Assembly (NCBI GenBank): GCA_965203905.1
Contig: CBDBDQ010000005.1
Location: forward strand, 4,480,001-4,544,000
DNA length: 64,000 nt
Source: Spirochaetia bacterium
Lineage (GTDB): Bacteria > Spirochaetota > Spirochaetia > SZUA-6 > Bin103
Direction of reading: 5' to 3'
Shown: positions 1 through 20,109 of the stretch, piece by piece
Position numbering within the stretch: position 1 is the first letter of the stretch
Layout of the letters: every line of letters starts with the position of its first letter
Translations under genes and position numbers: made by a program
Notes under the pieces: model-generated
Databases searched by the model: none
What the model saw: the letters and a program-made list of their open reading frames with translations, nothing else
What the model was told of the DNA's origin: nothing

Positions 1-15
1 GGGTCAATCTCTCCA

Positions 16-3000
16 GCTTCAATGAGGCCGCCGGAATTCACCGGCGGAAACGCGCGCTGGCAGGAGGGCAACTGAAACATGGGCTTATACGCTTCAATGA
101 GGCCGCCGGAATTCACCGGCGGAAACATCCTCGGCGACGGCCGTGCTGTGGCGGCGGTTGACCCCGCTTCAATGAGGCCGCCGGAATTCACCGGCGGAAA
201 CTTCGGCGGTCATCCCCTCGGCCAGCGTCCGGCCGAAGCGCTTCAATGAGGCCGCCGGAATTCACCGGCGGAAACGCCGACAAGAAGGCCGCCGCCGAGG
301 CCAAAGCCGCCGCCGAGCTTCAATGAGGCCGCCGGAATTCACCGGCGGAAACGCGCGCTGGCAGGAGGGCAACTGAAACATGGGCTTATACGCTTCAATG
401 AGGCCGCCGGAATTCACCGGCGGAAACAGTCGAGCACGTCAACCTGCAGGACGAGAGTCCGGCAGCTTCAATGAGGCCGCCGGAATTCACCAGCGGAAAC
501 CATGGTAGTGATCCGGTTCACGGGTTACGTATTCGCGCTTCAATGAGGCCGCCGGAATTCACCGGCGGAAACCCCGAGATGGCGGAGAAGACGGCGCTGC
601 ACCGGCTGATGCTTCAATGAGGCCGCCGGAATTCACCGGCGGAAACTTCCGGTTTGAATCATGGTTCCAGCCAACCCCGCTTCAATGAGGCCGCCGGAAT
701 TCACCGGCGGAAACTCGTGTCAATAAGCCGAATGTTAAGAATGCTTAACGTGCTTCAATGAGGCCGCCGGAATTCACCGGCGGAAACTCCCCAGGGGATG
801 TCCGGTACCGCGAGATGGTGCTGCACGCTTCAATGAGGCCGCCGGAATTCACCGGCGGAAACTCCCCAGGGGATGTCCGGTACCGCGAGATGGTGCTGCA
901 CGCTTCAATGAGGCCGCCGGAATTCACCGGCGGAAACTCGCCGCTGATGTTGCCGTAGTCGTCTGTGTCGGTGCTGCTTCAATGAGGCCGCCGGAATTCA
1001 CCGGCGGAAACGAGGAACGGCGCCGGGTCCGGCCACTCGGTCAGCTCATCGCTTCAATGAGGCCGCCGGAATTCACCGGCGGAAACGCGATGGCCGCGCA
1101 AGCGGATGCAGACACCAACACCACGCTTCAATGAGGCCGCCGGAATTCACCGGCGGAAACAACGCCATCTCCTGCAATCCCATCGTCATGATCTCGGTGG
1201 CTTCAATGAGGCCGCCGGAATTCACCGGCGGAAACGCGGCTCATGCTGCCTCCCGGAGCACGGAGCGCGTCTCGCTTCAATGAGGCCGCCGGAATTCACC
1301 GGCGGAAACATTCGCAGCTAACAATATCATAGTCTGATTGAGCAAGACGCTTCAATGAGGCCGCCGGAATTCACCGGCGGAAACTCCAGGATCAGGAACC
1401 GCGCCCCGTAGTTGGTGGATGCGCTTCAATGAGGCCGCCGGAATTCACCGGCGGAAACACGCACCGGCCGGCGCGCTCTGGCACGGCCGCGTGATTGCTT
1501 CAATGAGGCCGCCGGAATTCACCGGCGGAAACTGCTCCTCCATGTAGTCCAGCAGGTCCAGCCCATCGCCGCTTCAATGAGGCCGCCGGAATTCACCGGC
1601 GGAAACATTCGCAGCTAACAATATCATAGTCTGATTGAGCAAGACGCTTCAATGAGGCCGCCGGAATTCACCGGCGGAAACTCCAGGATCAGGAACCGCG
1701 CCCCGTAGTTGGTGGATGCGCTTCAATGAGGCCGCCGGAATTCACCGGCGGAAACGTGGCGAAGCCGTCGGACTGTAGCGGGCTGATGCCGTCGCTTCAA
1801 TGAGGCCGCCGGAATTCACCGGCGGAAACGCCAGCGGCACATAATGAGTACCATGTTTGACAAGCTTCAATGAGGCCGCCGGAATTCACCGGCGGAAACC
1901 TGCCGAGGGTGTCGACGTGCTGTGGGTGGAGCAAGCCGCTTCAATGAGGCCGCCGGAATTCACCGGCGGAAACTCCCCAGGGGATGTCCGGTACCGCGAG
2001 ATGGTGCTGCACGCTTCAATGAGGCCGCCGGAATTCACCGGCGGAAACCGCAGCGTACTTCTGGTCCAGGGTTTGCTCCATATCGATGCTTCAATGAGGC
2101 CGCCGGAATTCACCGGCGGAAACGAGTATCTGGTCGGGCTCGGCCAGCCGCTCATCGAGCAGCTTCAATGAGGCCGCCGGAATTCACCGGCGGAAACCTG
2201 CTCGGAAACGCCTACTGGCCATTCACCATCAAGAAGCTTCAATGAGGCCGCCGGAATTCACCGGCGGAAACGCTGCCGCTGTCCATGTCCGCCGGGTCCA
2301 GGTCGCCCAGGCTTCAATGAGGCCGCCGGAATTCACCGGCGGAAACGTGCTCGGGGGAGCCCACGAAATCACCGCCGAACTCCATGGCGCTTCAATGAGG
2401 CCGCCGGAATTCACCGGCGGAAACGTGCTCGGGGGAGCCCACGAAATCACCGCCGAACTCCATGGCGCTTCAATGAGGCCGCCGGAATTCACCGGCGGAA
2501 ACTTGTCACGTCCTCGTCGTCCCAATCCTCCACCACCACGCTTCAATGAGGCCGCCGGAATTCACCGGCGGAAACCCGGTGACAGAGTGGCTGATACCCG
2601 TCCCATTATACACAGGCTTCAATGAGGCCGCCGGAATTCACCGGCGGAAACAGGCGGGCGGGGCCCCGTGGCACGAGTCGCCAGACGGGCTTCAATGAGG
2701 CCGCCGGAATTCACCGGCGGAAACCGGCGGCATGAGGGAGAACTGTGGCATTCACTGACTTGGGGCTTCAATGAGGCCGCCGGAATTCACCGGCGGAAAC
2801 TCGATACGGCAATCCTGGTCTCGCCACTTGTCGATTCGCTTCAATGAGGCCGCCGGAATTCACCGGCGGAAACCCAATACCACGCCGAGCGCTTCGGGTG
2901 CCAGCGCATCGCGCTTCAATGAGGCCGCCGGAATTCACCGGCGGAAACGCCAGATCCTCCAGCGCGCGAGCCGACGGCGCCGCCAGACGCTTCAATGAGG

Positions 3001-5338
3001 CCGCCGGAATTCACCGGCGGAAACATCCGAACCGATCCCCGGCCGCGAGGCCGAAATGGCCGAGCTTCAATGAGGCCGCCGGAATTCACCGGCGGAAACT
3101 GACGGGAACGGCGGCGGCGCGTCATCGGCCACGATGCTTCAATGAGGCCGCCGGAATTCACCGGCGGAAACTCGGGCGGCCCGGGCGCCGGCGCATCGGT
3201 CAGGTTGTCCTCGCTTCAATGAGGCCGCCGGAATTCACCGGCGGAAACTAGCTATATGCGATTAGTAGGCTATACCCCGTCATTTCGCTTCAATGAGGCC
3301 GCCGGAATTCACCGGCGGAAACAAGCCCGTGATCTCGCCGCCGTCCGGCAGTACGACAATGCTTCAATGAGGCCGCCGGAATTCACCGGCGGAAACGCCC
3401 GCCTTGCTCCGGCGGGTATTGAACGGGTGGAAGTGGCTTCAATGAGGCCGCCGGAATTCACCGGCGGAAACCTCGCAGCGCCACGGGCTATACTCGCGGA
3501 GAATCGCGTGCTTCAATGAGGCCGCCGGAATTCACCGGCGGAAACGCGGTTCGTACGTGTCGCCCGCGACCGCGCCCGGCCGCGCGCTTCAATGAGGCCG
3601 CCGGAATTCACCGGCGGAAACCGCCCGGATCATCGGCGACATCGTGGAGGAATGGATCACGCTTCAATGAGGCCGCCGGAATTCACCGGCGGAAACGGCC
3701 GCCGAGGACGTGTCCGAGGCCGGGCTGTACTTCTTGCTTCAATGAGGCCGCCGGAATTCACCGGCGGAAACCACGCCCAGGAGCCGCAGAGGAATCCTCC
3801 GATGGCCTCGCTTCAATGAGGCCGCCGGAATTCACCGGCGGAAACGTGATCCGCAGTTGCACCTGCCCGGTCAACGGGCTGTCCACCTCATCGCTTCAAT
3901 GAGGCCGCCGGAATTCACCGGCGGAAACTCCCGCCCGTAAGCCCAATCGGGCACCGGCGCATGCCGTGCTTCAATGAGGCCGCCGGAATTCACCGGCGGA
4001 AACGGCCGCCGAGGACGTGTCCGAGGCCGGGCTGTACTTCTTGCTTCAATGAGGCCGCCGGAATTCACCGGCGGAAACCACGCCCAGGAGCCGCAGAGGA
4101 ATCCTCCGATGGCCTCGCTTCAATGAGGCCGCCGGAATTCACCGGCGGAAACGTCAGGAAGGCGATGGCGTGCTCGTGGTCGGAGCGGGCGCTTCAATGA
4201 GGCCGCCGGAATTCACCGGCGGAAACCTCGCATTAGCAACCTACAAAGCGAAAAAGGCACCTTCCGCTTCAATGAGGCCGCCGGAATTCACCGGCGGAAA
4301 CGTTGAACAGTAGAAGGATCGAGCCGCACCAGATCGCGCTTCAATGAGGCCGCCGGAATTCACCGGCGGAAACGTGTCGATACCGCCGTATGGTGCTGTC
4401 GGTCTCTTTGGTGCTTCAATGAGGCCGCCGGAATTCACCGGCGGAAACTACGGCATAGTGAATGACGTTGTAGTCTACATGGCAACGCTTCAATGAGGCC
4501 GCCGGAATTCACCGGCGGAAACCCCTGGTCTCCGGCGCCGTGGATGTCGCCCTGCGCGCCGCTTCAATGAGGCCGCCGGAATTCACCGGCGGAAACTCCG
4601 CCTAAGAATGGCGCTATGATGCTGTTTTTCAACGGGCTTCAATGAGGCCGCCGGAATTCACCGGCGGAAACACAGCAGGGTCAAGCGGTTTTCGCAAAGT
4701 TTTTCAAGGCTTCAATGAGGCCGCCGGAATTCACCGGCGGAAACGAGTTAAACTCGCAGCCCTTGGTGACCAAGCCCCATCTTGCTTCAATGAGGCCGCC
4801 GGAATTCACCGGCGGAAACGAGGATTGAGAGTTAGAGAGTTCGTCAAGTCAAAGTGGCGCTTCAATGAGGCCGCCGGAATTCACCGGCGGAAACATCGCC
4901 GTCATCGGGACGCAGTTCGCCGATTCGCTGGCGCTTCAATGAGGCCGCCGGAATTCACCGGCGGAAACCCGGCACAACGACGTCTACGTTCCCCTCGGCC
5001 TCGTGGCTTCAATGAGGCCGCCGGAATTCACCGGCGGAAACCTCGTCCACCTGGTCGTCACTGAGCTTCCGGCGCGTGGTGCTTCAATGAGGCCGCCGGA
5101 ATTCACCGGCGGAAACCCGCAACCAGGCGTTGATGCCGCGCATCGAGTAGACGAGGCTTCAATGAGGCCGCCGGAATTCACCGGCGGAAACATCGTTGTT
5201 GGCGGAATCCAGCTCGGGCATGGAACCGCTTCAATGAGGCCGCCGGAATTCACCGGCGGAAACGCACCGCAGCAGTCGTCGCAGACGCCGCGAAAGTTCA
5301 ACGCTTCAATGAGGCCGCCGGAATTCACCGGCGGAAAC
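16..5338 (-). CRISPR. Type I-G CRISPR array: 72 repeats of 36 bp (transcribed as GTTTCCGCCGGTGAATTCCGGCGGCCTCATTGAAGC) and 71 complete spacers of about 32-47 nt; truncated by the window start
   Basis: Repeat GCTTCAATGAGGCCGCCGGAATTCACCGGCGGAAAC counted by hand from 16-51 to 5303-5338, with one variant (G>A at 492). It has an internal GC hairpin and an ATTGAAGC 3' end, and lies next to cas2. Confidence 0.99.
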
Positions 5339-5544: not shown

Positions 5545-5835
5545 CTACACAATGAGCGGTTCGCGCTGCATCGGGTGGAAGGTCTTCCCCAGGCTCACGA
5601 CACGCGGTTCGACGTTGTCGGCGACGCCCAGATCGACCAGTACCACGTGATCCTCGTTATGATCGATTGTTTTGTCGAGGCGTGCAACCAGTTCGGCCTG
5701 GCGGCGCTTGTTCATGCGGCACTGGAAGACCGAGAGCTGTACCCAGGCTCCGTATCCGTTCATCAGCTTGTAGACCTTGCGCCACCGCTTCGGGTCGGCA
5801 ATGTCGTAGGCCACGATGTACAGGTGCTCGTCCAT
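5545..5835 (-). CDS. cas2: CRISPR-associated endonuclease Cas2
   Basis: 96 aa; YIVAYDIAD..RW and WVQLSVFQC motifs. Confidence 0.97.
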   Translation of the reverse strand: MDEHLYIVAYDIADPKRWRKVYKLMNGYGAWVQLSVFQCRMNKRRQAELVARLDKTIDHNEDHVVLVDLGVADNVEPRVVSLGKTFHPMQREPLIV

Positions 5836-5838
5836 GGT

Positions 5839-7644
5839 TCAGCGCGTCGTGAAGTTGGGGTAGGCCGGAATCTCCCCGAGCAGGAAGCGCCCCAGGAGCC
5901 GGGCCTGCATCTCCATCAGGCGGCGGTAGCTGACCCGATAGCCGAACAGCGGATGGACGATTTCGTGGCTCAGGCGACGCTCGAAGGCGGCGATGAACCG
6001 GCGCCGACCCTCTGGAGTAAGGGCAACGCTGCCGGCGGCTGATCTGAAGTCGATCGGCCGTATCTCGCCGTTGTTGATGAGTTGCAGGACGACCGAGTCG
6101 GCGATCAAGGGCCGGAACGGCTCCATCAGGTCGAGAGCAAGGGCGGGACGGCCGTAGCGGGGTTGGTGATACAGGCCGCGGAAGGCATCGAAGCCGACGG
6201 CGGTCAGGGTCACGGTCCAGGCGCGGGTCAACAGCGAGTAGGCAAACGAGAGCAACGCGTTGACCGGATCGGTCGGCGGCCGCCGATTGCGCTTCTCGAA
6301 GTCGAACGCCAACGTCCGCGCCGGCTCGCTCTCGCTGAACATTGCCGGGAACGCTCGAAAGTAGCGCGCCGCGGCCGTTCCTTCCACGCCGAGCAGCACG
6401 GCCAGCGACCGCACCCGTGCCACCCGCCGGCTGTCCTCCTTGAGCTCGATCAGCACATCGCGATTATCTTCCGACCGCTTCCAGTTCCTCCTGAGCAGGG
6501 TGCGGCAATTCGCGATCTTGGCGCTCACCAGCCCCTTGGCGAAGCGCAGACAGATGGTCGGGTCGAAGCTGGCCCGATACTGAGCCGTTCTGAGCTCCAC
6601 GTTCTTGTGGCCATTCCCGATGGTGTGGCCATAGAACCATCCGCCGTGACTGTGCCAGGTCACCGGAATACCACGCCACATCAGTTCGTGCAGGCACGGT
6701 GAGGTGACGTAGATGCTGCCCATGAGCACCACCTGCGAGGTTTCCGCAAGGCGGGCGGTGGCTACCTTCTCGTCGTCGACGGTAACAACCAGCGTCTCAC
6801 CCGACTTGGCGACCTTGGCGCCGCGGGCCTGCACGTAGAGCGGCAGCGCGTCCGTGGCGGGCACGGCGATCGGACGGGGCGCGGCGCCGGGGCGGGAAAG
6901 CAACGCGAGATGATTTACCTCGTCGGGAAGACAGATGCTCACCAGGGAACAGCGCGGACACTTGGGGCTGTCTTCGAGCGGCGGCGGGATGGTGCCGCCG
7001 TGTGCCACGTTCCGCAAGCCCTCGACGGCCCGTTCCGTGGCGGCGATCAACTCGTCGTCGAACACGACCCGTACGCGCTCGCGGCCGGCCACGAAGTAGA
7101 GCACCCCTTCGTCGCACCGATAGCCGTGCTCGCGCAGGATCAGTCCCTGTACGCAGAGTTGCACTCGCTCGGGGTCGTAGGCACCGCGTTTCACGTGCGG
7201 ACGCTTGCCACGTTTGTAGTCGATCGGAACGACGCGCCCATGCTCGGACTCGATCAGGTCCATGCGTGCTATCAACCCCAGTCGCTCGGATGACAGCGTG
7301 ACCGACCGGGCATGCAGCTTCTCCGCGACCTCCTGCGGCGCCGGCATCGCGCCGCCGTCCCGATTGACGCGCCGGTGCGCATGCCGTCCCTCTACGGTGT
7401 CGGCGGAGTCAGCCCACTCGCCCTGAACCCACTCCAGGTAGGCCAGGCGCGGACAGTACTGATACTCGTTCACCATCCGGGCCGGCACCAGCGGACCTTC
7501 GACCGGTGCTCCGGCAGGAGGGAACACGAACTCGCCCTGCTGCGGTGCGGTTCTACGGCTCGCTTCCTCGGTGTCACCGGTCTGAGGAACCAGTGCCGGC
7601 GGCGGGAAGTTCGCCGCCGCGTTCTGCCTACCATCTGTCTTCAC
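5839..7644 (-). CDS. cas4-cas1: Cas4-Cas1 fusion (start uncertain)
   Basis: N-terminal Cas4 (YCPR, IDYKRG, QLCVQG, CPRCSLVSIC); C-terminal Cas1 (GVEGTAAARYF, RRPPTDPVNALLSFAY, LALDLMEPFRP). Confidence 0.96.
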   Translation of the reverse strand: MKTDGRQNAAANFPPPALVPQTGDTEEASRRTAPQQGEFVFPPAGAPVEGPLVPARMVNEYQYCPRLAYLEWVQGEWADSADTVEGRHAHRRVNRDGGAMPAPQEVAEKLHARSVTLSSERLGLIARMDLIESEHGRVVPIDYKRGKRPHVKRGAYDPERVQLCVQGLILREHGYRCDEGVLYFVAGRERVRVVFDDELIAATERAVEGLRNVAHGGTIPPPLEDSPKCPRCSLVSICLPDEVNHLALLSRPGAAPRPIAVPATDALPLYVQARGAKVAKSGETLVVTVDDEKVATARLAETSQVVLMGSIYVTSPCLHELMWRGIPVTWHSHGGWFYGHTIGNGHKNVELRTAQYRASFDPTICLRFAKGLVSAKIANCRTLLRRNWKRSEDNRDVLIELKEDSRRVARVRSLAVLLGVEGTAAARYFRAFPAMFSESEPARTLAFDFEKRNRRPPTDPVNALLSFAYSLLTRAWTVTLTAVGFDAFRGLYHQPRYGRPALALDLMEPFRPLIADSVVLQLINNGEIRPIDFRSAAGSVALTPEGRRRFIAAFERRLSHEIVHPLFGYRVSYRRLMEMQARLLGRFLLGEIPAYPNFTTR

Positions 7645-7949: not shown

Positions 7950-8831
7950 CTAGCGGCTCTTCCTGAACAGCCCGAACGCGAAGTTGGGTGGCGGCTCCGG
8001 AATGTCGTTGCGGTCCTGCAGGTAGCGCTGCGTCTGCTCCGTCGGCGAGACATGATCCATCGCGGTGAAGCCGGACCTCTGCATCTCGGCGTCGATCTCC
8101 TCGGGGCTGTACTCCGACAGCATCGGCTCGCCGCGGCGTTCCACGAATCGGTCCATCTTCTCGACCAGCGCCAGCCCGGCAGCGGGCACCAGGCTTCGGG
8201 GGTACCGGTAGTCGAGCACTACCTGGCTTCCGGGTGCGGCGACGGCGTCGATCTGGTCGATGGTGTCGCTGACGGCCTCCCTGGTCAGGTAGCACGTCAC
8301 CCCCAGCCACGCAAAGAAGGCCGGTGCCTCGGGGTCGAAGCCGGCTCCGATCAATGCAGCGTCAAGCCGGTCCGTCTCGAAGTCCACCGGCACCAACGCG
8401 AGATTCGAGGGCAGCGGGCCAATGCGCGCGAGCTGGTGGCGCTTCATCTCCTGCGACGCCGGATGGTCGACTTCGTAGATGCGCAGCCGATCCGCCAGAC
8501 TCGGGTGGCGCACCGCGAACGTGTCGAGCCCGGCTCCGAGGATCACGTACTGCTGCACGCCGGATGAAATCGCTTCCTGCAGCCGGTCCTCGGCGTACCG
8601 GATGCGCAGGATGATCACGGTGTGGGTGGGCTTGAGCGTTCGCAGCAGGACATCGACCACGAGGCGGTTCAGCACCCAGTTGTTGGCGACCAGCCGCCAG
8701 AACGGTGTCACCATGGCGCCTGCGTATTGGTCGGAGAAGATCGGATTCGGATTCCACCTGAGGTGGCTGGCGCGTACGGCGGCCACCAGTATCGCGGTGG
8801 TGCTGGCCTTGCGAGGGCGGGTGTCGGACAT
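7950..8831 (-). CDS. SAM-dependent methyltransferase, leucine carboxyl methyltransferase-like family
   Basis: QYVILGAGLDT, YEVDHP, VPVDFE and WLGVTCYL motifs. Confidence 0.9.
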   Translation of the reverse strand: MSDTRPRKASTTAILVAAVRASHLRWNPNPIFSDQYAGAMVTPFWRLVANNWVLNRLVVDVLLRTLKPTHTVIILRIRYAEDRLQEAISSGVQQYVILGAGLDTFAVRHPSLADRLRIYEVDHPASQEMKRHQLARIGPLPSNLALVPVDFETDRLDAALIGAGFDPEAPAFFAWLGVTCYLTREAVSDTIDQIDAVAAPGSQVVLDYRYPRSLVPAAGLALVEKMDRFVERRGEPMLSEYSPEEIDAEMQRSGFTAMDHVSPTEQTQRYLQDRNDIPEPPPNFAFGLFRKSR

Positions 8832-8964
8832 GACGCGTCAGTATGTACGCGTCATCCTCGACCTTGTCGAGCACCCGTGCCGCCAACGCCCTTGGCGCCT
8901 TCGGCCCCGACGCAGGTAGGTTGCCCCTGTGTTGCTATCGCGCCGACCTGCAACTCCTCTATCG

Positions 8965-10215
8965 TCAGCCGTCACGCTGGGAGCCGCAGAACAGGCGCCG
9001 CACCGTCTGGTTGGGAATAACCATGCGGGGAATGTATTCACGCTCTGGTTGGATGCTCAGCAGGCCGAAGTAGTGCAGCAGCGACGGGAGGTTCTCCGGC
9101 TGGGCCAGTTCCTCCAGCAGAAAGCCGTCACGGACCGGGCTTTCCACGGCGCTTTCGCAGGCCAGTTGGCGCAGCATGTCGAAGGTCTCGTTGAGCTTCC
9201 GGTTGCCGGTCAGCAGGTGGCGCAGCTTGTCGTAGTGGACGCGTACACTGCCATCGATCAGGTCGTCCGGCGGTCCACCGTTCGAGATCGATTCCATCAG
9301 GTAGCGGAGCACCGATTTCGTGTGGTAGAGGTCGTTCCGGGCGCGCTCGCCGAATCGGTAGCCGCCGTACCACTCACCCATGACGGCCATCGCCTCGTTC
9401 ACGTCCTGGTCGAACACGCCGAGCTGGCGGTAGCGCTCCAGCAGGTCGCATACCTCCGCTTCCGTGAAACCCAGCATCTCGTTGAACTCCGGACGCAGGC
9501 TGATGTCCATGCCGATGTTGAAGCCGCCGGTCACGCCGGCCATGCTGATCGGCGTCACCCCGGCGACAAAAATGCGCTCGATGCCGCCGTGTCCGGTGCC
9601 GGCCTTGAGCGTGGCGAAGAAGCTGCGGTAGAAGCCGGCAAAGTCCGGGGCCGGCCACCGGCTCGCACCGGTGCCGCGATCGGCCAGAACGGAATCGGCG
9701 AGGTAGTCGTAGCCGTCGATCAGTACGTACAGCGGAACGCCGTGCGTTGACCCGCGCAGGAACAACTCGTTCAGCTTCGATTCGATGCTGGACGCCGCCA
9801 GGATGCGCTGCCTCACCGCGTCGGGGAACAGGTCACGGTTGCACTCCAACGCGTGGCGGAGGCTTCGGGAGCAATGCTGATCGAAGGGTTCCCGCGAGGT
9901 CTCCGCGGCGTCGCCAAGCGCGGAGAAGTCGAAGTGCAGGATGACGTAGCGGTGGCGCTCCGGCGTCGGTCGCCGTGCGATGTCGGTGCCGGCGAACAAT
10001 GCCTCGAACCGGCCGGCGGCGTTGCGATCGTAGTAGTTCCGCAGCAGCGAAACCCAGCACGACTTCCCGAACCCGCGGGGGCGCATCAGAAAGGCGTAGT
10101 GTACCTCTTCCAGCTCGTGCAGAAAGCGGGTCTTGTCGACGTAGAGCATCCGTTCGCGGCGCATCGCCTCGAAGTCGGTGCGGTCGTAAGGAATCTGGGG
10201 ATACGCGGTGCTCAT
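8965..10215 (-). CDS. AAA-ATPase-like protein (PF09820 type), probably truncated or degenerate
   Basis: YVDKT, RPRGFGKS Walker A, and LIDGYD in place of the usual LIDEYD. Ends after IPNQTV, before the usual C-terminal PD-(D/E)XK domain. GGAGG precedes ATG 10215. Confidence 0.8.
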   Translation of the reverse strand: MSTAYPQIPYDRTDFEAMRRERMLYVDKTRFLHELEEVHYAFLMRPRGFGKSCWVSLLRNYYDRNAAGRFEALFAGTDIARRPTPERHRYVILHFDFSALGDAAETSREPFDQHCSRSLRHALECNRDLFPDAVRQRILAASSIESKLNELFLRGSTHGVPLYVLIDGYDYLADSVLADRGTGASRWPAPDFAGFYRSFFATLKAGTGHGGIERIFVAGVTPISMAGVTGGFNIGMDISLRPEFNEMLGFTEAEVCDLLERYRQLGVFDQDVNEAMAVMGEWYGGYRFGERARNDLYHTKSVLRYLMESISNGGPPDDLIDGSVRVHYDKLRHLLTGNRKLNETFDMLRQLACESAVESPVRDGFLLEELAQPENLPSLLHYFGLLSIQPEREYIPRMVIPNQTVRRLFCGSQRDG

Positions 10216-10464
10216 CTCGACACCTCCGTCACCTCCGTGGTGAAAATCGGCGCAAATTGGCGCGGCCGACATCCGTTCCTTCCATCGGTTCGCGCTTCAT
10301 TCTGTTCTTCAGCCAGGCGGCGACCTCGCTCCGGCTGTTCAGGGCTTCCTCGATCTCGCGTTCAACCGGACTCAACGCCGCCAACCGCGTAGCGCGCTCC
10401 TCGGTGTGGGCGACCGAGCGATTCGAGAGCCATCTGCCGTTGCCGCTCAGGGACGAACACCGTC

Positions 10465-10746
10465 TCAAGCCGTCTCGAACCGCTCCACCGTGATCTGTTC
10501 GGCGCGGTCCCGGGCCTGCCAGAGATCGTAGGCCATCTGCATGCCGAGCCAAGTCTCTGGAGTGGAACCAAACGCCTTCGACAGGCGAATGGCCATATCG
10601 ATGGAAACACGCACCTTCTCATTGACCAGTTCGGAGAGGACGCGCCGCGTCACGCCGAGCCCTGCGGCTGCCCGCGTGACCGAGAGGCCGAGATGCTCAA
10701 GGCACTGTCGCCGGACGATGCCGCCGGGATGGGGGGGATTGTGCAT
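10465..10746 (-). CDS. higA: HigA family antitoxin (HTH)
   Basis: MHNPPHPG...LGLSVTRAAAGLGVTR...DMAIRLSKAFGSTPETWLGMQ. Confidence 0.92.
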   Translation of the reverse strand: MHNPPHPGGIVRRQCLEHLGLSVTRAAAGLGVTRRVLSELVNEKVRVSIDMAIRLSKAFGSTPETWLGMQMAYDLWQARDRAEQITVERFETA

Positions 10747-10767
10747 AGATACGATCGTAACACGTCG

Positions 10768-11045
10768 TCAGTGGAAGTCTACGTAGTCGACGACGGCAGA
10801 TCCGTCCTCGAAGCAGAAGGTAACACGCCAATTCGCGGACACGGCAACAACGAGTATCCCTTCATGGTCCGTAGCGGATGGAGCCGAAACCTCGGCAGAT
10901 CCATGCCTTCGGGTCCACTGCTTGATCGAGCGTGGCGAGGATGTCCAGCAGCTTCGACACGTGTTCAGGCGGAACCCGGTCGCGCAGGCGTTTGCCTGCG
11001 CGTTACCGGCGGATTTGACGCGCAAGGACGAAGCGCTGGATGCCG
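10768..11045 (-). pseudogene. higB: HigB (RelE family) toxin pseudogene with at least two frameshifts
   Basis: HigB-like segments lie in different frames: PEHVSKLLDILATLDQA / GMDLPRFRLHPLR / AVSANWRVTFCFEDG..VDYVDFH*. Directly upstream of higA. Confidence 0.8.
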
Positions 11046-11076
11046 GACAGGTCACGGGCGAGGTAGAGGGCCTTGC

Positions 11077-12813
11077 TCACGGGGCGCCGGTCCTTGGGGC
11101 GATCGAATCTGTGGCGGCGAACAACCCGAGGCCGAAGTGGCAGCCGTAGCCGAGGGCGACCGGGCCGGAGACCGACTCCGGGAAGTGCACGCGCAGCAGC
11201 GCGCCGTGCGGGTCGGAGGCGCGTTCGCGGCCGCGGGAGCGGAAGCGGTGATACTGGAGCGACCGGCGGCGGTTGCCGTGGACCTCCACGAAGGGGAGCA
11301 GGTCGACCTGAATGCGGCCGGTCAGCGATGGGCCCAGGATGCCTCGACGCTGGATGAGCCGGCGCACTTCGCGGGGGTAGCCGGTAGCCTCCGCCAGGGG
11401 GCCTTCGATCATTCGACCGGCTTCCAGCGTGCGGCGGGCAGTGCGTCCCTCGCCGGTTCGCTTCAGGTGAGCAGTCGGCAGAAAGGGGGTGACGCTGTCC
11501 CAAACCCGTGCATGCCGGAATAGAGCGGAGAATTGCGCGAACTCCTCACACGTGCCGAAGCCTTCCAGTGCCAGCCGCCACTCGCGGCGGCCGCCTTCTT
11601 CGGTAGCGCTGCCCGCCTGGGAGCCGCGTGCCGGTAGCCACAACCGCGTCAGCCGATCGAGGGCGGCCCGCACCCGGGTGTCGAATCCGCTAGCAGCGTA
11701 CACGCACACGTGGTCGATCAGACCGTCCCCGTCGGCGTCCTCCGGAAGCCAGAAGGCATGCGAATGGTGGGCGTCGCGCAACGGAGTGTTACCCTCGCCA
11801 CGGCCGGAGATCTCGGGCGGTGCCAGCGCTCGGGAGCGCCCGGTGCGCGGATCCGATTCCCAGCCGAACTGTGACAGAGCCGCGCGGCGCATCAGCTCGC
11901 CGATCCTTACCGCGTCTTCGATGCGCGGTTGCGGGCGTCCGGCAAGCAGATAACGGGCGACCGTGTAGCGGGAAGGGTCCGGTATCCGTGCACCGCGCGG
12001 CACCACGCGGCGCGGGTGGGGTGAGAGCGGCGTGCGCTCGTAGTGGATCTCGTGCGCCGCCGGAGGCCGGTTCCAGCCGTGTTTCTGGAAATCGGCGGTG
12101 TCCACGGCTACCGCGTCGATAAGGCGGTTCGGCAGCGTGCGGCCGAAGCGTCTCTGCCGCTTCCTGCCCAGCGCCAGCGAGGTAGGCGGTCGCTTGCCGG
12201 CTGCGTGCGCTGCCGCCCGCTCCTCAGCGTCCGCTTGTGCCAGGAGGCGCTCGCGCCGCGCCGCATAATCGCTGGCGGTGAGCGGTCCCGGTACCGAAAC
12301 TAACTCTCCGAAGCCGTTCGCAGTGCCCTCAACGGGCAGACAATTGGCCCCCGATCGATCCCACTCCGCCGTCGCGCTGCACTGCACCCAGCTCTCGGCG
12401 CGGCCAAGGTACCCGATGCCGTCGGCAAGATCGGTAACCAAGTCGAACAGCCGGGGTTCCAGCAGGAGGTCCGGCCACGCGACGACGATCGATGCGCCCT
12501 CCGGCAGGTGAGCGAAGGCATCGAACACCAGGGTCTTCCTGGCCGGCGCGGGCATGTAGTGCCGAGTGTGCGCGTGTACGGCGCCCTCGGGCAAGTGGTA
12601 AATCGGTGTCGCCTCCGCCAGCGCATCGATCAGGTTCGCGGCCTCTTCCTTCGACCAGTGCGCGCAGGATCCCTTGCGCCAGTAGGTAGCGATCAGCGCT
12701 CGCAGGATTCGCCACGGCTCCGGCGGCCACGCCACGTCGGCCTCGTTGACATGGCGGCCCCACGGGGTCGCGTGGTAGCGGTGCGCCGGAAAGCTGAACG
12801 AGAGCGCGAGCAT
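11077..12813 (-). CDS. csb2: Type I-G Csb2 (Cas5-Cas6 fusion)
   Basis: YHATPWGRHVNE..WPPEPWRILRAL, YLGRAESW, and C-terminal glycine-rich GPVALGYGCHFGLGLF. Confidence 0.95.
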   Translation of the reverse strand: MLALSFSFPAHRYHATPWGRHVNEADVAWPPEPWRILRALIATYWRKGSCAHWSKEEAANLIDALAEATPIYHLPEGAVHAHTRHYMPAPARKTLVFDAFAHLPEGASIVVAWPDLLLEPRLFDLVTDLADGIGYLGRAESWVQCSATAEWDRSGANCLPVEGTANGFGELVSVPGPLTASDYAARRERLLAQADAEERAAAHAAGKRPPTSLALGRKRQRRFGRTLPNRLIDAVAVDTADFQKHGWNRPPAAHEIHYERTPLSPHPRRVVPRGARIPDPSRYTVARYLLAGRPQPRIEDAVRIGELMRRAALSQFGWESDPRTGRSRALAPPEISGRGEGNTPLRDAHHSHAFWLPEDADGDGLIDHVCVYAASGFDTRVRAALDRLTRLWLPARGSQAGSATEEGGRREWRLALEGFGTCEEFAQFSALFRHARVWDSVTPFLPTAHLKRTGEGRTARRTLEAGRMIEGPLAEATGYPREVRRLIQRRGILGPSLTGRIQVDLLPFVEVHGNRRRSLQYHRFRSRGRERASDPHGALLRVHFPESVSGPVALGYGCHFGLGLFAATDSIAPRTGAP

Positions 12814-12825
12814 GTCGGCGAGCGA

Positions 12826-16079
<3,254 letters not shown>

Positions 16080-16090
<11 letters not shown>

Positions 16091-18536
16091 GCGTCACCTC
16101 CACTTCGGTAGCCGATGCCCGCCAGTCGGCGATGCGCAGGAGGGCTTCCAGCCACGCCAGTCGAAACGGTCCGTAGCGTTCCAGCAGACCGCGCGTACGT
16201 TCGGTCCAACTGGCCTCCGAACGGGCGTCCTCGCCCAGTTCCATCACTGACAGGCTCAGCTCACCCCCGGGCCACCGCTCGCCGGTTCCCAGTTCGACGT
16301 CCGGAAGCTGGTCGCCTTCCCACACGCCGCGCGCGAACCGCCGACCGTCGGGGCGGCCTTCAGCAGTGGTCCCCGGCTTCTCCGCGGGAAGCGCGCGCAG
16401 ATTCATGCGCACCTTGCCATGATGCGCGGCAATGAGGTACGCAACCAGGTCGGCGGCGCGCGACCACTCGGCATGGGCAAGCCATGCGAGGGCCGAGGCC
16501 AGCTCATGGCGGAAGTAGGGGCGACCCTTGCTTCGGTCATAGTGATGCGCTTTGGCAAGCACTGGCCCCGAGGCACTCGCGCCAAGTCGCTCTTGGAATG
16601 TGGCGTGGGCCTTCCCGACATCATGCCAGCGCGCCGCCTGGATTACCTCGCGTTTGCCAGTGACGGCCCCAAGAGTCTCGCAGAGCCGGTCGGCCTCCGA
16701 CACGACATGCTGGAGATGAGCGGTGAGAGGCACCACTGCCCGCTGCTGGCTCTCAGGATCCGCGTCCAGCGACTCAGCCACCCGCTGATCAGGATCCGGG
16801 GGATCGATCGGCATGACCGGGGCGGTCACGGTGGGGTCGAATCCGGTGCACGGTGAATAGCCTCCCGCGGTGACGTGCAGCATCAGCACGAGTCCGGGCC
16901 ACGGAGTGGCGTCAAGAGGCACCCAGGCCGTGCCGCGTTCGCCACCACCGCGCCGTCGTATCTGGGGATCGGTCTGATAGGCGCGCAACCGCTGTTTGGT
17001 GCGTACCGCTTTGAGCCAATCGCGCGCCTGTCCGATCGGCACTGCACACAGTTCCTCTCGCCGCGGCGGAGGCTCGTCGCGGGGACCTTCGGAACGGTCG
17101 AAGTCGCGCCAGAACACGCGGATGTCGGTGTCTTCCGCGTCGCGCACGTAGGGCGACACATCGACGTCGAAGCCGGTTAGATCTGGGTCGGTGTCATACA
17201 GATCGATCAGGTCCTTGCGGCGAATCACCCAGCGGTGCGCGCAATCCTCGGCAGCGGGAGGGGCCAGATTCGACGGTCTCGCGTCGTTCAAACTGGCGAT
17301 GCGCGAGCGTCCGATGGCCAGTTCGCGCGGCTCGTACGGGGCCGCCAGGGCGTCGTCAGCAGTGGTAAGGTCGATCCAGTGAATGGTCGCACCGCCGCTT
17401 TCGTTCAGTTCTCCGTACCGGTTCACCCGACCGAATCGCTGCACCATCGAGGAAGCCGGCGCCAACTCGGTGATGAGCGTAGCTGCGGACAGGTCGACTC
17501 CCGCTTCAATGGCTTGCGTGGTGACCACGATCAGGTCGCGCGCCGTGCGTGGCTGCGGCAGCTTCTCCATCTGCACGTGGCGGTCGCCGGGGCGAAACCG
17601 GGAGTGGATCAGGGCGAGGCGGTCGGGCGGCACACCCTGCTTGATGAGGGCCGCATGCACCCGTTGAGCACGGGCAACCGTGTTCAGGATTACCAGTGTC
17701 GTCCGCCCCGGTTGATGATGCGCGCGACCTGCTGCGGCCAACTCACGTACGTAAGCTGCGATGTCGGCCTTCCTGGCGCTCACCGGCCGGACCGGCGACG
17801 GCGCGATCCGTTTCGGCGCGTCGAGCAAGGTGCGGACGGCCGGAGACTGCTGGTCTCCTGGAAACTCGTCGGGAACGCGCCAGACGCGGGGATTGGCCGG
17901 TGCGTCCACCGTGTGCAGCCACCGAGGGTGCAGAGTGGCCGATACCCAGAGGCTGGCGGCGTCCGCCTCGGTCCCCAGTGTTCGCCGCAGCCCTTCGAGT
18001 TGCGTGGAGGTAGCCAGGCCAGAGCTCATGAGCTGGATCTCGTCGAACACCCACTGGACGTCGTTGTGAAGGAGAGCGAAATCGACCGGCCAGCGAAAGC
18101 GGCTCATGGCGTATCCGCGCATCAGTGCGCGGCTGATCAGCATGTCCTGGGTCCCGACCAGGACTGCCGGGCGCTCCGGCCACTCGTACCACCTTGGCTC
18201 GTCCTCCCCACCCATCAGGACGTGGACGTCGCGGTCGGCGTCGGGCAAACGTACCTGCCACTCCTGAACGGATGGAAGCCGTCGAAGCCACGCGGTCACG
18301 TTGCGCGCGGTCTGGTCGGCAAGCGTGCGCATCGGCAGGCAGTAAACCAGCCGGAGCGGAGCGGTTTCGGCTGAGATGACGCGCTTCCAGAGCCAAGCGA
18401 GCACTACCGCAGCGGTCTTGCCGAGGCCGGTAGGAGCTATGAGCGCATCCGGCCAGACGCGGTCGGCGAGCGCTTCCTGGTAAGCGAACGGCTTGGCTCC
18501 CCCTAACGCTGCGGAGAAGAAGTCGCGGTACGTCAT
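16080..18536 (-). CDS. cas3: Type I-G Cas3 (helicase with C-terminal HD nuclease)
   Basis: APTGLGKT, DEIQ, SAT and QRFGRVNR helicase motifs; C-terminal HDVGKAH, AHHG and IADWRAS. Confidence 0.96.
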
Positions 18537-18760
18537 GGGGGCGTCTTCGCTCCAGGAGGAAGACGAACCTTCGCCATCTCGCGCATCTCGCTACTCTCCC
18601 GATCGCCGCCCGCGCTTGCAGCATCTTGGTATAGAATCACGTGCACGGAAGACTCTTCCCTCCACTCCTCGATACCGCCGATGGCGCGAGCACCGACCAC
18701 TACTCGAAACGAACGCTGCCCCGTCGACGTACTCCTGGCGTTCAGCTGCGCTATTGTCAT
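18533..18760 (-). CDS. Putative 75-aa leader ORF coupled to cas3, function unknown
   Basis: ATG lies shortly after the cas promoter; its TGA overlaps the cas3 ATG (ATGA). An alternative in-frame GTG follows GAGGAGTGGAGG. No recognisable family. Confidence 0.4.
   Translation of the reverse strand: MTIAQLNARSTSTGQRSFRVVVGARAIGGIEEWREESSVHVILYQDAASAGGDRESSEMREMAKVRLPPGAKTPP
18542..18565 (-). promoter_or_regulatory. Hairpin enclosing the cas3 Shine-Dalgarno sequence
   Basis: Minus strand CGTCTTC-CTCCTGGAGC-GAAGACG; the GGAG is inside the structure, just before the cas3 ATG. Confidence 0.5.
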
Positions 18761-18782
18761 TTCTTAGCCTACGGCGTAATCT
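18754..18782 (+). promoter_or_regulatory. Oppositely oriented, overlapping promoter for the mini-array
   Basis: TTGTCA (18754-18759)-N17-TAATCT (18777-18782). Confidence 0.65.
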
Positions 18783-18784
18783 AA
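18767..18784 (-). promoter_or_regulatory. Target site (TTA PAM plus partial protospacer) of the mini-array spacer
   Basis: Minus strand TTA-GATTACGCCGTAGGC versus spacer GATTACGCCGTCGGC. Confidence 0.8.
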
Positions 18785-18806
18785 CTATATACTTGATCGC
18801 GGTCAA
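18778..18806 (-). promoter_or_regulatory. Promoter of the cas3-csx17-csb1-csb2 operon
   Basis: Minus strand TTGACC-N17-TAGATT in a locally AT-rich patch. Confidence 0.75.
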
Positions 18807-18816
18807 CAGCGAGTGT

Positions 18817-18921
18817 GCTACCGCCCAAGGCGGTCTCTTTGAAGCGATTACGCCGTCGGCGCAGTTCGCGTATGAGCCTCTCTATCCGGGCCTCAACCAT
18901 GAGACCCGGCCTCTTTGCCCT
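18817..18921 (+). ncRNA. CRISPR-like mini-array (pseudo-repeat, 36-nt spacer, pseudo-repeat); candidate CreR/CreA-type regulatory crRNA
   Basis: psiR1 18817-18845 GCTA-CCGCC-CAA-GGCGG-TCTC-TTTGAAGC; spacer 18846-18881; psiR2 18882-18921 CTAT-CCGGG-C-CTCA-ACCA-TGAG-A-CCCGG-CCTC-TTTGCCCT. Array repeat for comparison: GTTT-CCGCCGG-TGAATT-CCGGCGG-CCTC-ATTGAAGC. Confidence 0.82.
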
Positions 18922-19195
18922 CCGGGGGCGGTTTCGTCGTCGACCGGATGAGCGGTGTATGCCATGGTCAACGGTGGCGCATCAGCCGGCGACAGAACTA
19001 CGGCGCCGTTCCCGGCGAGCCGCCCCGACGCGCAGCGTTGTGGGAGACAAGGGGTCGGGTGGGTCGGGGGCAGAGCCGTAGCCTGATCCGAAAATGGTGG
19101 CCGCCGTGCACTGCTCCATTGCGCCGGTTTCATGGTCTTCCGTGTCACGGTGCGACCGTGCTGACTCAGCGGATTTCGGTCGCTATGCTGGAAGC

Positions 19196-19354
19196 GTGAT
19201 TCGCGTGGGAGTGATCGGGGCCGGCGCAGTCGCCCCGGTCAGTTGCCGCGACTTCGTCGCTTTGAACCGCGTGTTCGCCGCGCCGCGCGCGCCGGACGCG
19301 GTCTATCGCGCGGCAGCCGCCGGGCGGGAGGTGATCCTCGATGGATCGGACTGA
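19196..19354 (+). pseudogene. Remnant of a Gfo/Idh/MocA-type oxidoreductase with a large internal deletion
   Basis: An N-terminal MIRVGVIGAG Rossmann start is joined within 52 aa to a typical C-terminal DAVYRAAAAGREV. Confidence 0.5.
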
Positions 19355-19467
19355 CGGAAGTGATTGGACGAAGAACCGCGCTGCGTCGGGGCATCGCGCC
19401 ACTCCGCTCGATGTCTCGTGACCGGCGAGGGGCCATACTGAGCGATGGGGAGGCGGGCACCAGGCTG

Positions 19468-20109
19468 ATGCAACCGGACAAGGCGCCGACCGGGACCGAC
19501 GCCTGCATGCGCCCGGCCCGGGTCATCTTCCTGGACATCGACGGGGTGTTGCAGCCGACGTCGAGCCAGAAGCGGTTCAAGCATGATCTCGTTGCATTGC
19601 GCGAGAGCCTCGCCGAGCGCTTCGGCGCCGAATACCGGGAGGTGAACGAGTACGACCTGGGAGCGGTGGTCCATGACTGGCACGCCGGGGCGGTGGCGCG
19701 GCTGCGCGCCCTGTGCGACGACCACGGCGCCAGGATCGTCGTCAGCTCGGATTGGCGACTGCGGCGGTCGGTGGACCAGCTCCGGGCGCTGTTTCGCCTT
19801 CACGACCTGCATCACCTGGTGGTGGACCGCACGATCGACGCCTCGGGGCCGCCGCACTACCGAGCCGGGGAAGTGAAGCAGTATCTGGACACGCACCCCG
19901 AAATCGAACGCTTCGTCATCATCGACGACGGTTACCGCACGGAGTTCGACGGGCTTTTTCCCGAACAATTCGTTCACACCGGAAGCTTCATCGACGAGCC
20001 CGATGCTCTGCGTGCGCGCCAGATTCTTTCGGGTGGGCCGGTCACCCAGGAGAACAGACCTTTCGTTCGAACGGTCTTCCGCGGCGACTACCGTAGTCTC
20101 TTCGGGTAG
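19468..20109 (+). CDS. HAD-domain protein (Swiss-army-knife RNA-repair HAD type)
   Basis: IFLDIDGVL, IVVSSDWR and FVIIDD motifs. Confidence 0.82.
   Translation: MQPDKAPTGTDACMRPARVIFLDIDGVLQPTSSQKRFKHDLVALRESLAERFGAEYREVNEYDLGAVVHDWHAGAVARLRALCDDHGARIVVSSDWRLRRSVDQLRALFRLHDLHHLVVDRTIDASGPPHYRAGEVKQYLDTHPEIERFVIIDDGYRTEFDGLFPEQFVHTGSFIDEPDALRARQILSGGPVTQENRPFVRTVFRGDYRSLFG

Follow-up and report, generated by a model that had tools for sequence, protein, structure and literature searches.

Can a CRISPR-Cas system place its own effector genes and the gene of the guide that represses them under one RNA-guided switch? Guides of the CreR type are a known way for clustered regularly interspaced short palindromic repeat (CRISPR) systems to sense and set the level of their own effector, and descriptions of such systems so far take the guide gene as an input that is constitutive. 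Our question arises from a 64-kb stretch of a Spirochaetia bacterium genome (assembly GCA_965203905.1, contig CBDBDQ010000005.1, positions 4,480,001 to 4,544,000; 67% G+C; hereafter the window), which carries a complete type I-G CRISPR-Cas set on the minus strand and, on the plus strand and divergent from cas3g, a degenerate mini-CRISPR (psiR1-psiS-psiR2) 275 nt upstream of that gene. The original prediction, made from this sequence, proposed that the promoters of the cas operon and of the mini-array oppose each other with overlapping -10 boxes and that a single Cascade binding event would silence both. The comparative evidence makes silencing of the cas arm very likely, while for the guide arm the proposal draws on the geometry of the locus and on promoter motifs of moderate strength.

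The mini-array comprises two repeat-like units around one spacer-like guide. The first unit, psiR1 (18811..18845, plus strand), contains a predicted hairpin (18820-18834), TCTC and an 8-nt 5′ handle, TTTGAAGC (18838-18845), where the repeat of the main array ends in ATTGAAGC. It is followed on the same strand by psiS (18846..18885), the spacer-like guide of about 36-40 nt whose first 15 nt pair with the target described below, and by psiR2 (18886..18913), in which a hairpin (18886-18909) and CCTC are not followed by a 5′ handle. Aligned with the array repeat, psiR1 is identical at 24/36 positions (10/12 in its last 12 nt) and psiR2 at 21/36; the handle and both hairpins are retained, and on this alignment both units are derived from the array repeat. 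In type I-G systems, cleavage by Csb2 occurs 4 nt beyond the hairpin base on its 3′ side, so that 8 nt remain as the 5′ handle (PMC9638904). By this rule, a Csb2 cut is predicted after 18913 and the guide RNA would extend from 18838 to 18913 (~76 nt). A search of 18500-19500 against Rfam returned nothing meaningful (one match, E 0.95). A contig from a coral metagenome (run X4) spans the mini-array (18797-18943) with nine differences, and the three that are listed (18864, 18879 and 18882) fall in the non-pairing part of psiS. A search for sequencing runs gave five matching runs, none recorded as RNA, and the four inspected consist of contigs, which bear on neither start sites nor strands.

The sequence that this guide would recognise lies on the minus strand between the mini-array and cas3g (18767..18784) and consists of a protospacer-adjacent motif (PAM), TTA (18784-18782), and a protospacer (18781-18767). 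Positions 1-11 and 13-15 of psiS are identical to the minus strand from 18781 down to 18767, with a mismatch at position 12. We scored pairing over 15 informative positions, omitting positions 6 and 12: psiS and its target reach 13/15, compared with 11 for the best control, both among 1000 dinucleotide shuffles of the 830-nt stretch and among 72 other I-G cas3 upstream regions. Moreover, a search of the 8-Mb genome for TTN followed by the 11-nt seed (position 6 free) returned a single site, the target on the cas3 -10, and the reversed-pattern control returned 0. The PAM of type I-G is TTN (PMC9638904), and a partial, seed-proximal match beside TTA fits this motif, which was taken from that publication and not from the spacers of this system. 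For cas3g-cas8g-cas7g-csb2, a single promoter is predicted, and the target extends over its -10. The core of guide and target (18852-18860 and 18767-18775; GCCNTAGGC and GCCTACGGC) is nearly palindromic, and RNAalifold predicts a small hairpin inside the guide.

Comparison among relatives revealed that guide and target have changed together. Cas3g orthologues with 68-80% identity to that of the window are present in nine other genomes of the same family, and the upstream region is included in eight loci (L002-L009, with L031-L034 denoting the same places as L002, L003, L005 and L007); counting the window, this gives nine loci from nine genomes. A mini-array divergent from cas3 with a PAM-flanked target in between was found in all eight relatives (9/9 with the window), and the PAM is TTN in every one of the nine loci. 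The seeds vary by lineage (GATTA, GACTA, TGTAC/TGCAC, GAAC, GAGT), with every target following the guide of its own locus, and a 2-nt register shift is found in guide and target alike in one group. Pairing reaches 13-14/15 in seven of the nine loci, the window included. In the eight loci with a clear register, mismatches occupy 12/16 cells at positions 6 or 12 and 17/120 elsewhere (Fisher's p 1e-6, which is overstated as the loci are kin). Such a mismatch pattern is the signature of a Cas7 backbone, along which every sixth base is flipped out. Furthermore, the psiR2 hairpin is kept in the nine loci, one of its pairs being AU in four loci and GC in three. Sequence and comparison show that the guide, the partial target beside its PAM and the cas3 promoter are real, conserved elements and that guide and target have co-evolved.

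In a tenth copy (G003:C41; L124, 1-835), a stop and frame changes interrupt cas3, guide and target pair at 9/15 and the PAM is TTG; from its sequence, this copy serves as a natural control, or an example of joint decay. In L033/L005 (G008), a tandem GAAGC triplication at the end of psiR1 moves the handle relative to the guide, which pairs at 11/15 in the best register and may be impaired. We also scanned type I-G loci more widely, requiring a GAA[AG]N handle, a TTN PAM and pairing of at least 12/15 in the upstream stretches of 78 of 80 loci (L054 and L068 being without the cas3 N-terminus), the window and four orthologous loci, 83 in total. Seven of the 83 stretches pass, all in the clade of the window, with L009 and L033 (11/15) just below; by this rule, which did not search for guides that differ in handle, PAM or position, the 74 further I-G stretches hold no such element. 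A metagenome scan with the Cas3 N-terminus yielded four distant loci (39-50% identity), which were not used in the comparisons.

Of the two opposed promoters, that of the cas operon is the better supported. A sigma-70 scan of the 14-kb locus gave two matches only, the leader promoter of the main array and the cas3 promoter, and a scan of 18300-19400 called the minus-strand promoter alone (9/12; 0.1 expected per shuffle). This predicted promoter (18778..18806, minus strand) combines the -35 hexamer TTGACC (18806-18801) with the -10 hexamer TAGATT (18783-18778) at 17 nt and has a predicted start near 18771. As cas3g, cas8g, cas7g and csb2 overlap or nearly abut their neighbours, it is the only recognisable promoter for the whole effector. 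In the comparison, a TTGAC-type -35 (the GTCAA(C) block) with a -10 at 16-18 nt passes the scan in 8/9 loci, and in L033 such a promoter is seen by eye only, at 19-nt spacing. In five loci (the window, L004, L009, L031 and L006) the -10 itself is targeted, whereas in L032, L034 and L008 the target is shifted 2-3 nt downstream of the -10, over the predicted start. Taken together, the motif is strongly supported as a real promoter, and sequence and comparison make CreR-type repression of the cas3 operon highly probable. In L008 (G009), a second minus-strand promoter, TTGACA-17-TATATT, which is close to consensus (11/12), is located just downstream of the target, with its -35 about 5 nt past protospacer position 17, so that by its position two cas3 promoters may there lie under one Cascade footprint. 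The guide target shows no similarity by eye to the array leader promoter.

Does the mini-array have a promoter of its own under the same target? Candidate promoter A (18754..18782, plus strand) consists of the -35 TTGTCA (18754-18759) and, after 17 nt, the -10 TAATCT (18777-18782), with a predicted start near 18789. Its -10 and that of cas3 have 18778-18782 in common, as originally predicted; reading the sequence confirmed all motif coordinates of both promoters exactly, as well as the statement that PAM and protospacer span both -10 hexamers. The joint 7-mer TAATCTA (18777-18783) is a pseudo-symmetric -10, which gives the hexamer TAATCT in plus-strand and TAGATT in minus-strand sense and has a 5/6 -35 hexamer 17 nt off on either side, and the predicted starts at 18771 and 18789 are 18 bp apart. 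Such a paired arrangement is far above chance: among the 16 TAnnnTA 7-mers of the 64-kb window, TAATCTA is the only one that has, to its left and to its right, a -35 matching at 5/6 or better at a distance of 16-18 nt, and 30 shuffles of the window that preserved dinucleotides yielded none. With the threshold relaxed, five promoter-like sites are found in the 1.1-kb region compared with 0.76 expected, four of them inside a 50-bp island. The same island holds candidate promoter B (18764..18793, plus strand), with the -35 TTAGCC/TAGCCT at 18/17 nt from the -10 TATACT (18788-18793), a total score of 8/12 and a predicted start near 18800; its -35 falls within the protospacer. The -10 of promoter A ends 63 nt, and the rival TATACT 52 nt, before the start of the spacer (18846).

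In relatives, the plus-strand signal has to be sought in the -35. With any TAnnnT -10, the opposite strand automatically acquires an A2 and a T6 at an offset of one base; a plus-strand -10 thus comes free, and the direction is set by the -35. The best plus-strand -35 (of six positions, for the hexamer offset by 1 nt) scores 5 in the window, 2 in L004, 3 in L009, 4 in L031, 3 in L006, 3 in L032, 3 in L034 and 5 in L008, with background probabilities of 0.38 for at least 3, 0.09 for at least 4 and 0.009 for at least 5; the scores in the orthologues exceed this background. In L004 and L009, there are instead plus-strand promoters that score 9/12 (TTGACC/TTGTCA-18-CATAGT/CATATT), with a -10 overlapping the seed. 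The candidates of the orthologues sit 58-68 nt before the start of the spacer. These motifs lend moderate support to the predicted plus-strand promoter of the guide being real.

The geometry of the locus bears on the guide promoter independently of its hexamers. The distance from PAM to spacer is 61-70 nt in the seven loci measured, of which about 27 nt belong to the hairpin of psiR1, the handle and the 4 nt that link them; in the window, the free space between PAM and psiR1 hairpin is about 35 nt, and some 35 nt ahead of the start are required for a promoter. With so little space between PAM and hairpin, and with a transcript that must start before the hairpin, a guide promoter could hardly avoid the PAM/protospacer region, whichever hexamers it uses. 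The only alternative would be a guide promoter further left, for which bound Cascade would act as a roadblock, and this argument would hold for promoters A and B alike.

We propose that the 50-bp AT-rich island is a symmetric bidirectional promoter in which TAATCTA would serve as -10 for both strands, with one -35 per side. Leftward transcription would yield a small open reading frame (ORF) and cas3g-cas8g-cas7g-csb2, whereas rightward transcription would most likely yield psiR1-psiS-psiR2. Csb2 would trim the rightward transcript to a CRISPR RNA (crRNA)-like guide of the CreR type, about 76 nt long, that would be loaded into the I-G Cascade. The complex would recognise the TTA PAM and pair through the first 15 nt of the guide over the shared -10, with position 12 unpaired; a 15-nt match should be too short for interference, which is presumably why Cas3 would stay inactive at the self-site. 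Bound in this way, it would exclude RNA polymerase in both orientations, so that the cas operon would be repressed by its own product and, with its promoter under the same footprint, the guide gene would be repressed too. Competing crRNAs or anti-CRISPRs would relieve the repression, by analogy with the CreR systems in which this was tested (Liu et al., 10.1101/2023.03.10.532045). From the locus and its relatives, we infer expression and processing of the guide, the choice of its promoter and the repression itself.

We consider this model as a whole, with a bidirectional promoter, a CreR-type guide and repression of both arms, reasonably probable. For the guide gene, self-repression through a promoter shared with the cas operon is plausible and, on the spacing of the elements, geometrically hard to avoid, with the balance tilting slightly in its favour. 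For its most pointed form, an RNA-guided divergent autorepressor in which one Cascade-guide complex on one symmetric -10 shuts off all protein subunits, Cas3 included, together with its own guide gene, we would give an even chance. The description as a "double negative" feedback loop should be abandoned, since the layout corresponds to two parallel negative autoregulatory arms of the AcrR/acrAB type and not to mutual inhibition.

Several observations weigh against a shared, self-repressed promoter. The motif of promoter A matches at 8/12 and was not called by the sigma-70 scan, because its -10 TAATCT matches at 3/6 only, and promoter B offers a better -10 (TATACT) 11 nt further right in the same island. 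The -35 TTGTCA of promoter A overlaps the start codon of the small ORF (ATGACAA), and in the four loci that hold this ORF the plus-strand -35 coincides with its start codon (ATGACAA, ATGGTCAA), so that the recurrence of TTGTCA in L009 may reflect coding rather than promoter function. In the 1-nt-offset configuration, a plus-strand -35 of at least 4/6 is present in only 3/8 loci. On the side of the guide, L009 and L033 pair at 11/15 only and the handle of L033 is disturbed by the triplicated GAAGC; moreover, the nearly palindromic core inflates the apparent conservation of pairing. Finally, Cas3 is a stable, integral part of the I-G effector (PMC9638904), and the avoidance of nuclease action at the self-target is an assumption.

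A first alternative is a CreR-type repression of the cas3 promoter only, in which the guide would be supplied essentially constitutively, from the TATACT promoter or from weak pervasive initiation at the symmetric -10, and the overlap of the -10 boxes would be a by-product of symmetry. In its favour, any TAnnnT -10 places A2 and T6 on the other strand (our own reasoning; PMC12825309), the plus-strand -10 is weak (3/6) and an alternative promoter is at hand in TAGCCT-17-TATACT; furthermore, the I-E and I-F mini-arrays described by Shmakov et al. are located upstream of their target and co-oriented with it, so that CreR needs no self-repression (PMC10120712). However, both plus-strand candidates have their -35 or -10 in 18754-18793, within or touching PAM and protospacer, and with about 35 nt from PAM to hairpin and 61-70 nt from PAM to spacer no promoter would escape the footprint. 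Moreover, a 5/6 plus-side -35 at exactly 17 nt has a chance of only about 0.009. We regard this alternative as unlikely, albeit one to be taken seriously.

The small ORF, which the original prediction had missed, raises a second alternative. It encodes 75 aa (18533..18760, minus strand) between the promoter and cas3g, begins about 10 nt after the predicted start of the cas3 arm and ends in a TGA stop that overlaps the cas3 ATG (ATGA). Homologues with 19-35% identity are present in L004, L009 and L006, so that with the window four of nine loci hold it, three of these with the ATGA overlap; L032, L034 and L033 retain remnants, and L031 and L008 have none. It has no Pfam match (one at E 0.058) and its Atlas scores are 0.76 or less, a search of 5.8 billion proteins returned two close homologues only, and its codon-position G+C is weakly gene-like. 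The structural model is one long beta-hairpin (mean predicted local distance difference test score, pLDDT, 64.5; predicted template modelling score, pTM, 0.32). The motif GGTAGAATCAC in the cas3 leader, considered as another promoter, was ruled out as a remnant of the ...VILY... codons of this ORF. CreR is distinguished from CreA by having no cognate toxin gene, and here a conserved 75-aa ORF without known family follows the targeted promoter.

Thus, the mini-array might be the antitoxin half of a CreTA/CrePA-like addiction module, in which the 75-aa product would be toxic and loss or inhibition of Cascade would be penalised, possibly in addition to autorepression of the cas genes. The small ORF is indeed the first frame after the targeted promoter, kept in 4/9 loci with its stop overlapping the cas3 start in 3/4; both RNA and protein toxins repressed by CreA have been reported (10.1101/2024.01.05.574328), and CreA of Haloarcula hispanica represses two divergent promoters at once (10.1101/2023.03.10.532045). 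Against a toxin stand the missing family, Atlas or informative fold match and the mere two close homologues, the weakly gene-like codon-position G+C, and an identity of 19-35% among orthologues whose Cas3 proteins are 68-80% identical to that of the window. In addition, the ORF is deleted or a remnant in five of nine loci that still hold guide and target, and co-transcription with cas3 is unlike the known cre toxins. We consider an addiction module improbable. The small ORF could be a coupling leader for cas3 translation or a small accessory protein, with a CreP-like toxin least likely, and it leaves the proposed divergent autorepression unchanged.

That the element has no guide function and is a decaying array remnant beside an inverted repeat of chance or structural origin (either a hairpin or the repeat of an invertible promoter) is very improbable: some mini-arrays may be leftovers of degradation (PMC10120712), the palindromic core GCCNTAGGC would fit an inverted repeat and decay is seen in one relative (L124), but the element is kept in nine genomes with coordinated changes of seed and target, a TTN PAM in all nine orthologous loci (TTG in the decayed extra copy), mismatches at positions 6 and 12, a retained handle and both hairpins, and a pairing score above every control. 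The invertible-promoter reading of the inverted repeat was ruled out by the 64-nt spacing of the repeats, the lack of a recombinase nearby and a mismatch periodicity that fits Cascade.

In kind, the proposed system is a known one, CreR-type autorepression. CreR guides from degenerate mini-CRISPRs have been tested in types I-B, I-E and V-A, and creA-like elements were also found for type I-U (=I-G) (Liu et al., 10.1101/2023.03.10.532045). As in the CreR loci described there, two degenerate repeats flank one spacer, psiR1 keeps the handle and psiR2 the hairpin, and a seed-proximal partial match lies beside a cognate PAM at the promoter of effector genes, with Cas autorepression as the predicted outcome. 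In contrast to these, the guide gene in our locus is divergent, shares the -10 region with the operon and would have its own promoter under the target, a comparison that does not extend to their I-U layout (Figure S7); moreover, the first regulated cas gene is cas3, which belongs to the I-G effector, and a small ORF precedes it. Regulatory mini-arrays of types I-E, I-F1, I-D and I-B likewise comprise two conserved repeats and partial, PAM-flanked matches to cas promoters, with mismatches tolerated at every sixth position noted for I-F1 (Shmakov et al., PMC10120712). In the examples given there, the target lies downstream of a co-oriented mini-array, unlike in our locus; for I-G, the study gives a count only (235 loci, mini-array fraction 0.04).

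The symmetry of the promoter also has precedents. According to Warman et al. (PMC12825309), bidirectional promoters of bacteria most often share a -10 and have their divergent starts 18 bp apart; the authors also describe how Escherichia coli AcrR represses both arms of the acrR/acrAB promoter. Our locus resembles that case in its shared -10, the 18 bp between predicted starts and a single repressor that would shut off both a target operon and its own gene; it differs in that the repressor would be an RNA-guided multi-protein complex, with one arm encoding the proteins and the other the RNA. Among CRISPR systems, the single Cascade-CreA site of H. hispanica CreTA is tightly flanked by two divergent promoters, both of which are repressed (10.1101/2023.03.10.532045); there, however, archaeal promoters of a subtype I-B system are involved, the second of which drives the toxin RNA creT and not the guide gene. 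In Streptococcus pyogenes II-A, tracr-L acts as a natural truncated guide (11 nt) that represses a cas promoter without cleavage (10.1101/2020.05.21.102756), but in a class 2 system with a single protein and with a long form of the trans-activating CRISPR RNA (tracrRNA) as guide instead of a mini-array. CrePA of Acinetobacter baylyi I-F shares with our locus a mini-array guide that represses a promoter with a small protein as first product (10.1101/2024.01.05.574328); CreP is a KilAC-domain toxin of demonstrated toxicity, whereas no family is recognisable for the small ORF of our locus, which would be co-transcribed with cas3. In the literature consulted, with the supplementary I-U examples of Liu et al. 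lying outside the search, we found no CreR, CreA or tracr-L gene stated to be repressed through its own promoter or to share a -10 with the promoter that it represses. The new twist of this locus is likely to be that a bidirectional promoter is shared and that the guide gene would be repressed with the operon.

Each gene of the type I-G set scores above the NCBIfam curated cut-offs, and all are on the minus strand. The effector operon begins with cas3g (16080..18536; TIGR02621 cas3_GSU0051, E 3e-222), whose N-terminus aligns with those of its orthologues, and continues with cas8g/csx17 (13769-16090; TIGR04113), cas7g/csb1 (12826-13779; TIGR02570) and csb2 (11077-12813; TIGR02165). A cas4g/cas1g fusion (5839-7644; NF049935) and cas2 (5545-5835; TIGR01573) complete the set. 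Three cargo genes are located on the same strand between csb2 and cas4/cas1 (7950-11055), coding for a HigA-family antitoxin (10465-10746), an AAA-ATPase-like protein (8965-10272) and an S-adenosylmethionine-dependent methyltransferase (7950-8831); the 95-aa ORF beside the HigA gene (10768-11055) has no family match, and hence no HigB partner was identified. The main CRISPR array (15..5338, minus strand) comprises 72 copies of a 36-nt repeat inside the window, its end in crRNA sense being ATTGAAGC, with spacers of mostly 37-40 nt, and is preceded by a leader promoter (5470-5442, minus strand; TTGACA, 17 nt, TAGAAT; 11/12). This array contains internal duplications (752-2466), with identical spacers recurring, for instance, at 752, 827 and 1938 and at 1274 and 1571, and one repeat-spacer unit is copied exactly at 2311-2466. 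Beyond the mini-array, a dispersed element of about 64 nt (19105-19168) has 31 matches in the genome, including this copy, at 80-100% identity, and contig depth there is very high in four runs; it looks like an intergenic repeat resembling repetitive extragenic palindromic (REP) or miniature inverted-repeat transposable (MITE) elements.

If the guide gene does share both the -10 and the repression, the logic of the set-point would change, in that both halves of the repressor would be under feedback control, and RNA polymerase competition at the shared -10 would contribute another level of control. The repressor would have its protein and RNA parts made in a fixed ratio, the guide would never become abundant enough to out-compete the crRNAs of the 72-repeat array, and loss of Cascade activity through anti-CRISPRs or a flood of crRNAs would re-induce both arms together. 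As a further possibility, the small ORF, read first from the cas arm, might act as a penalty or coupling device. The locus is compact, with about 180 bp and four cas genes, and its orthologues supply compensatory pairs of seed and target. Should only the cas arm respond, it would be one more example of CreR, in subtype I-G. With Cas3 built into the I-G effector, the locus would moreover show how a Cas3-containing complex tolerates a permanent self-target.

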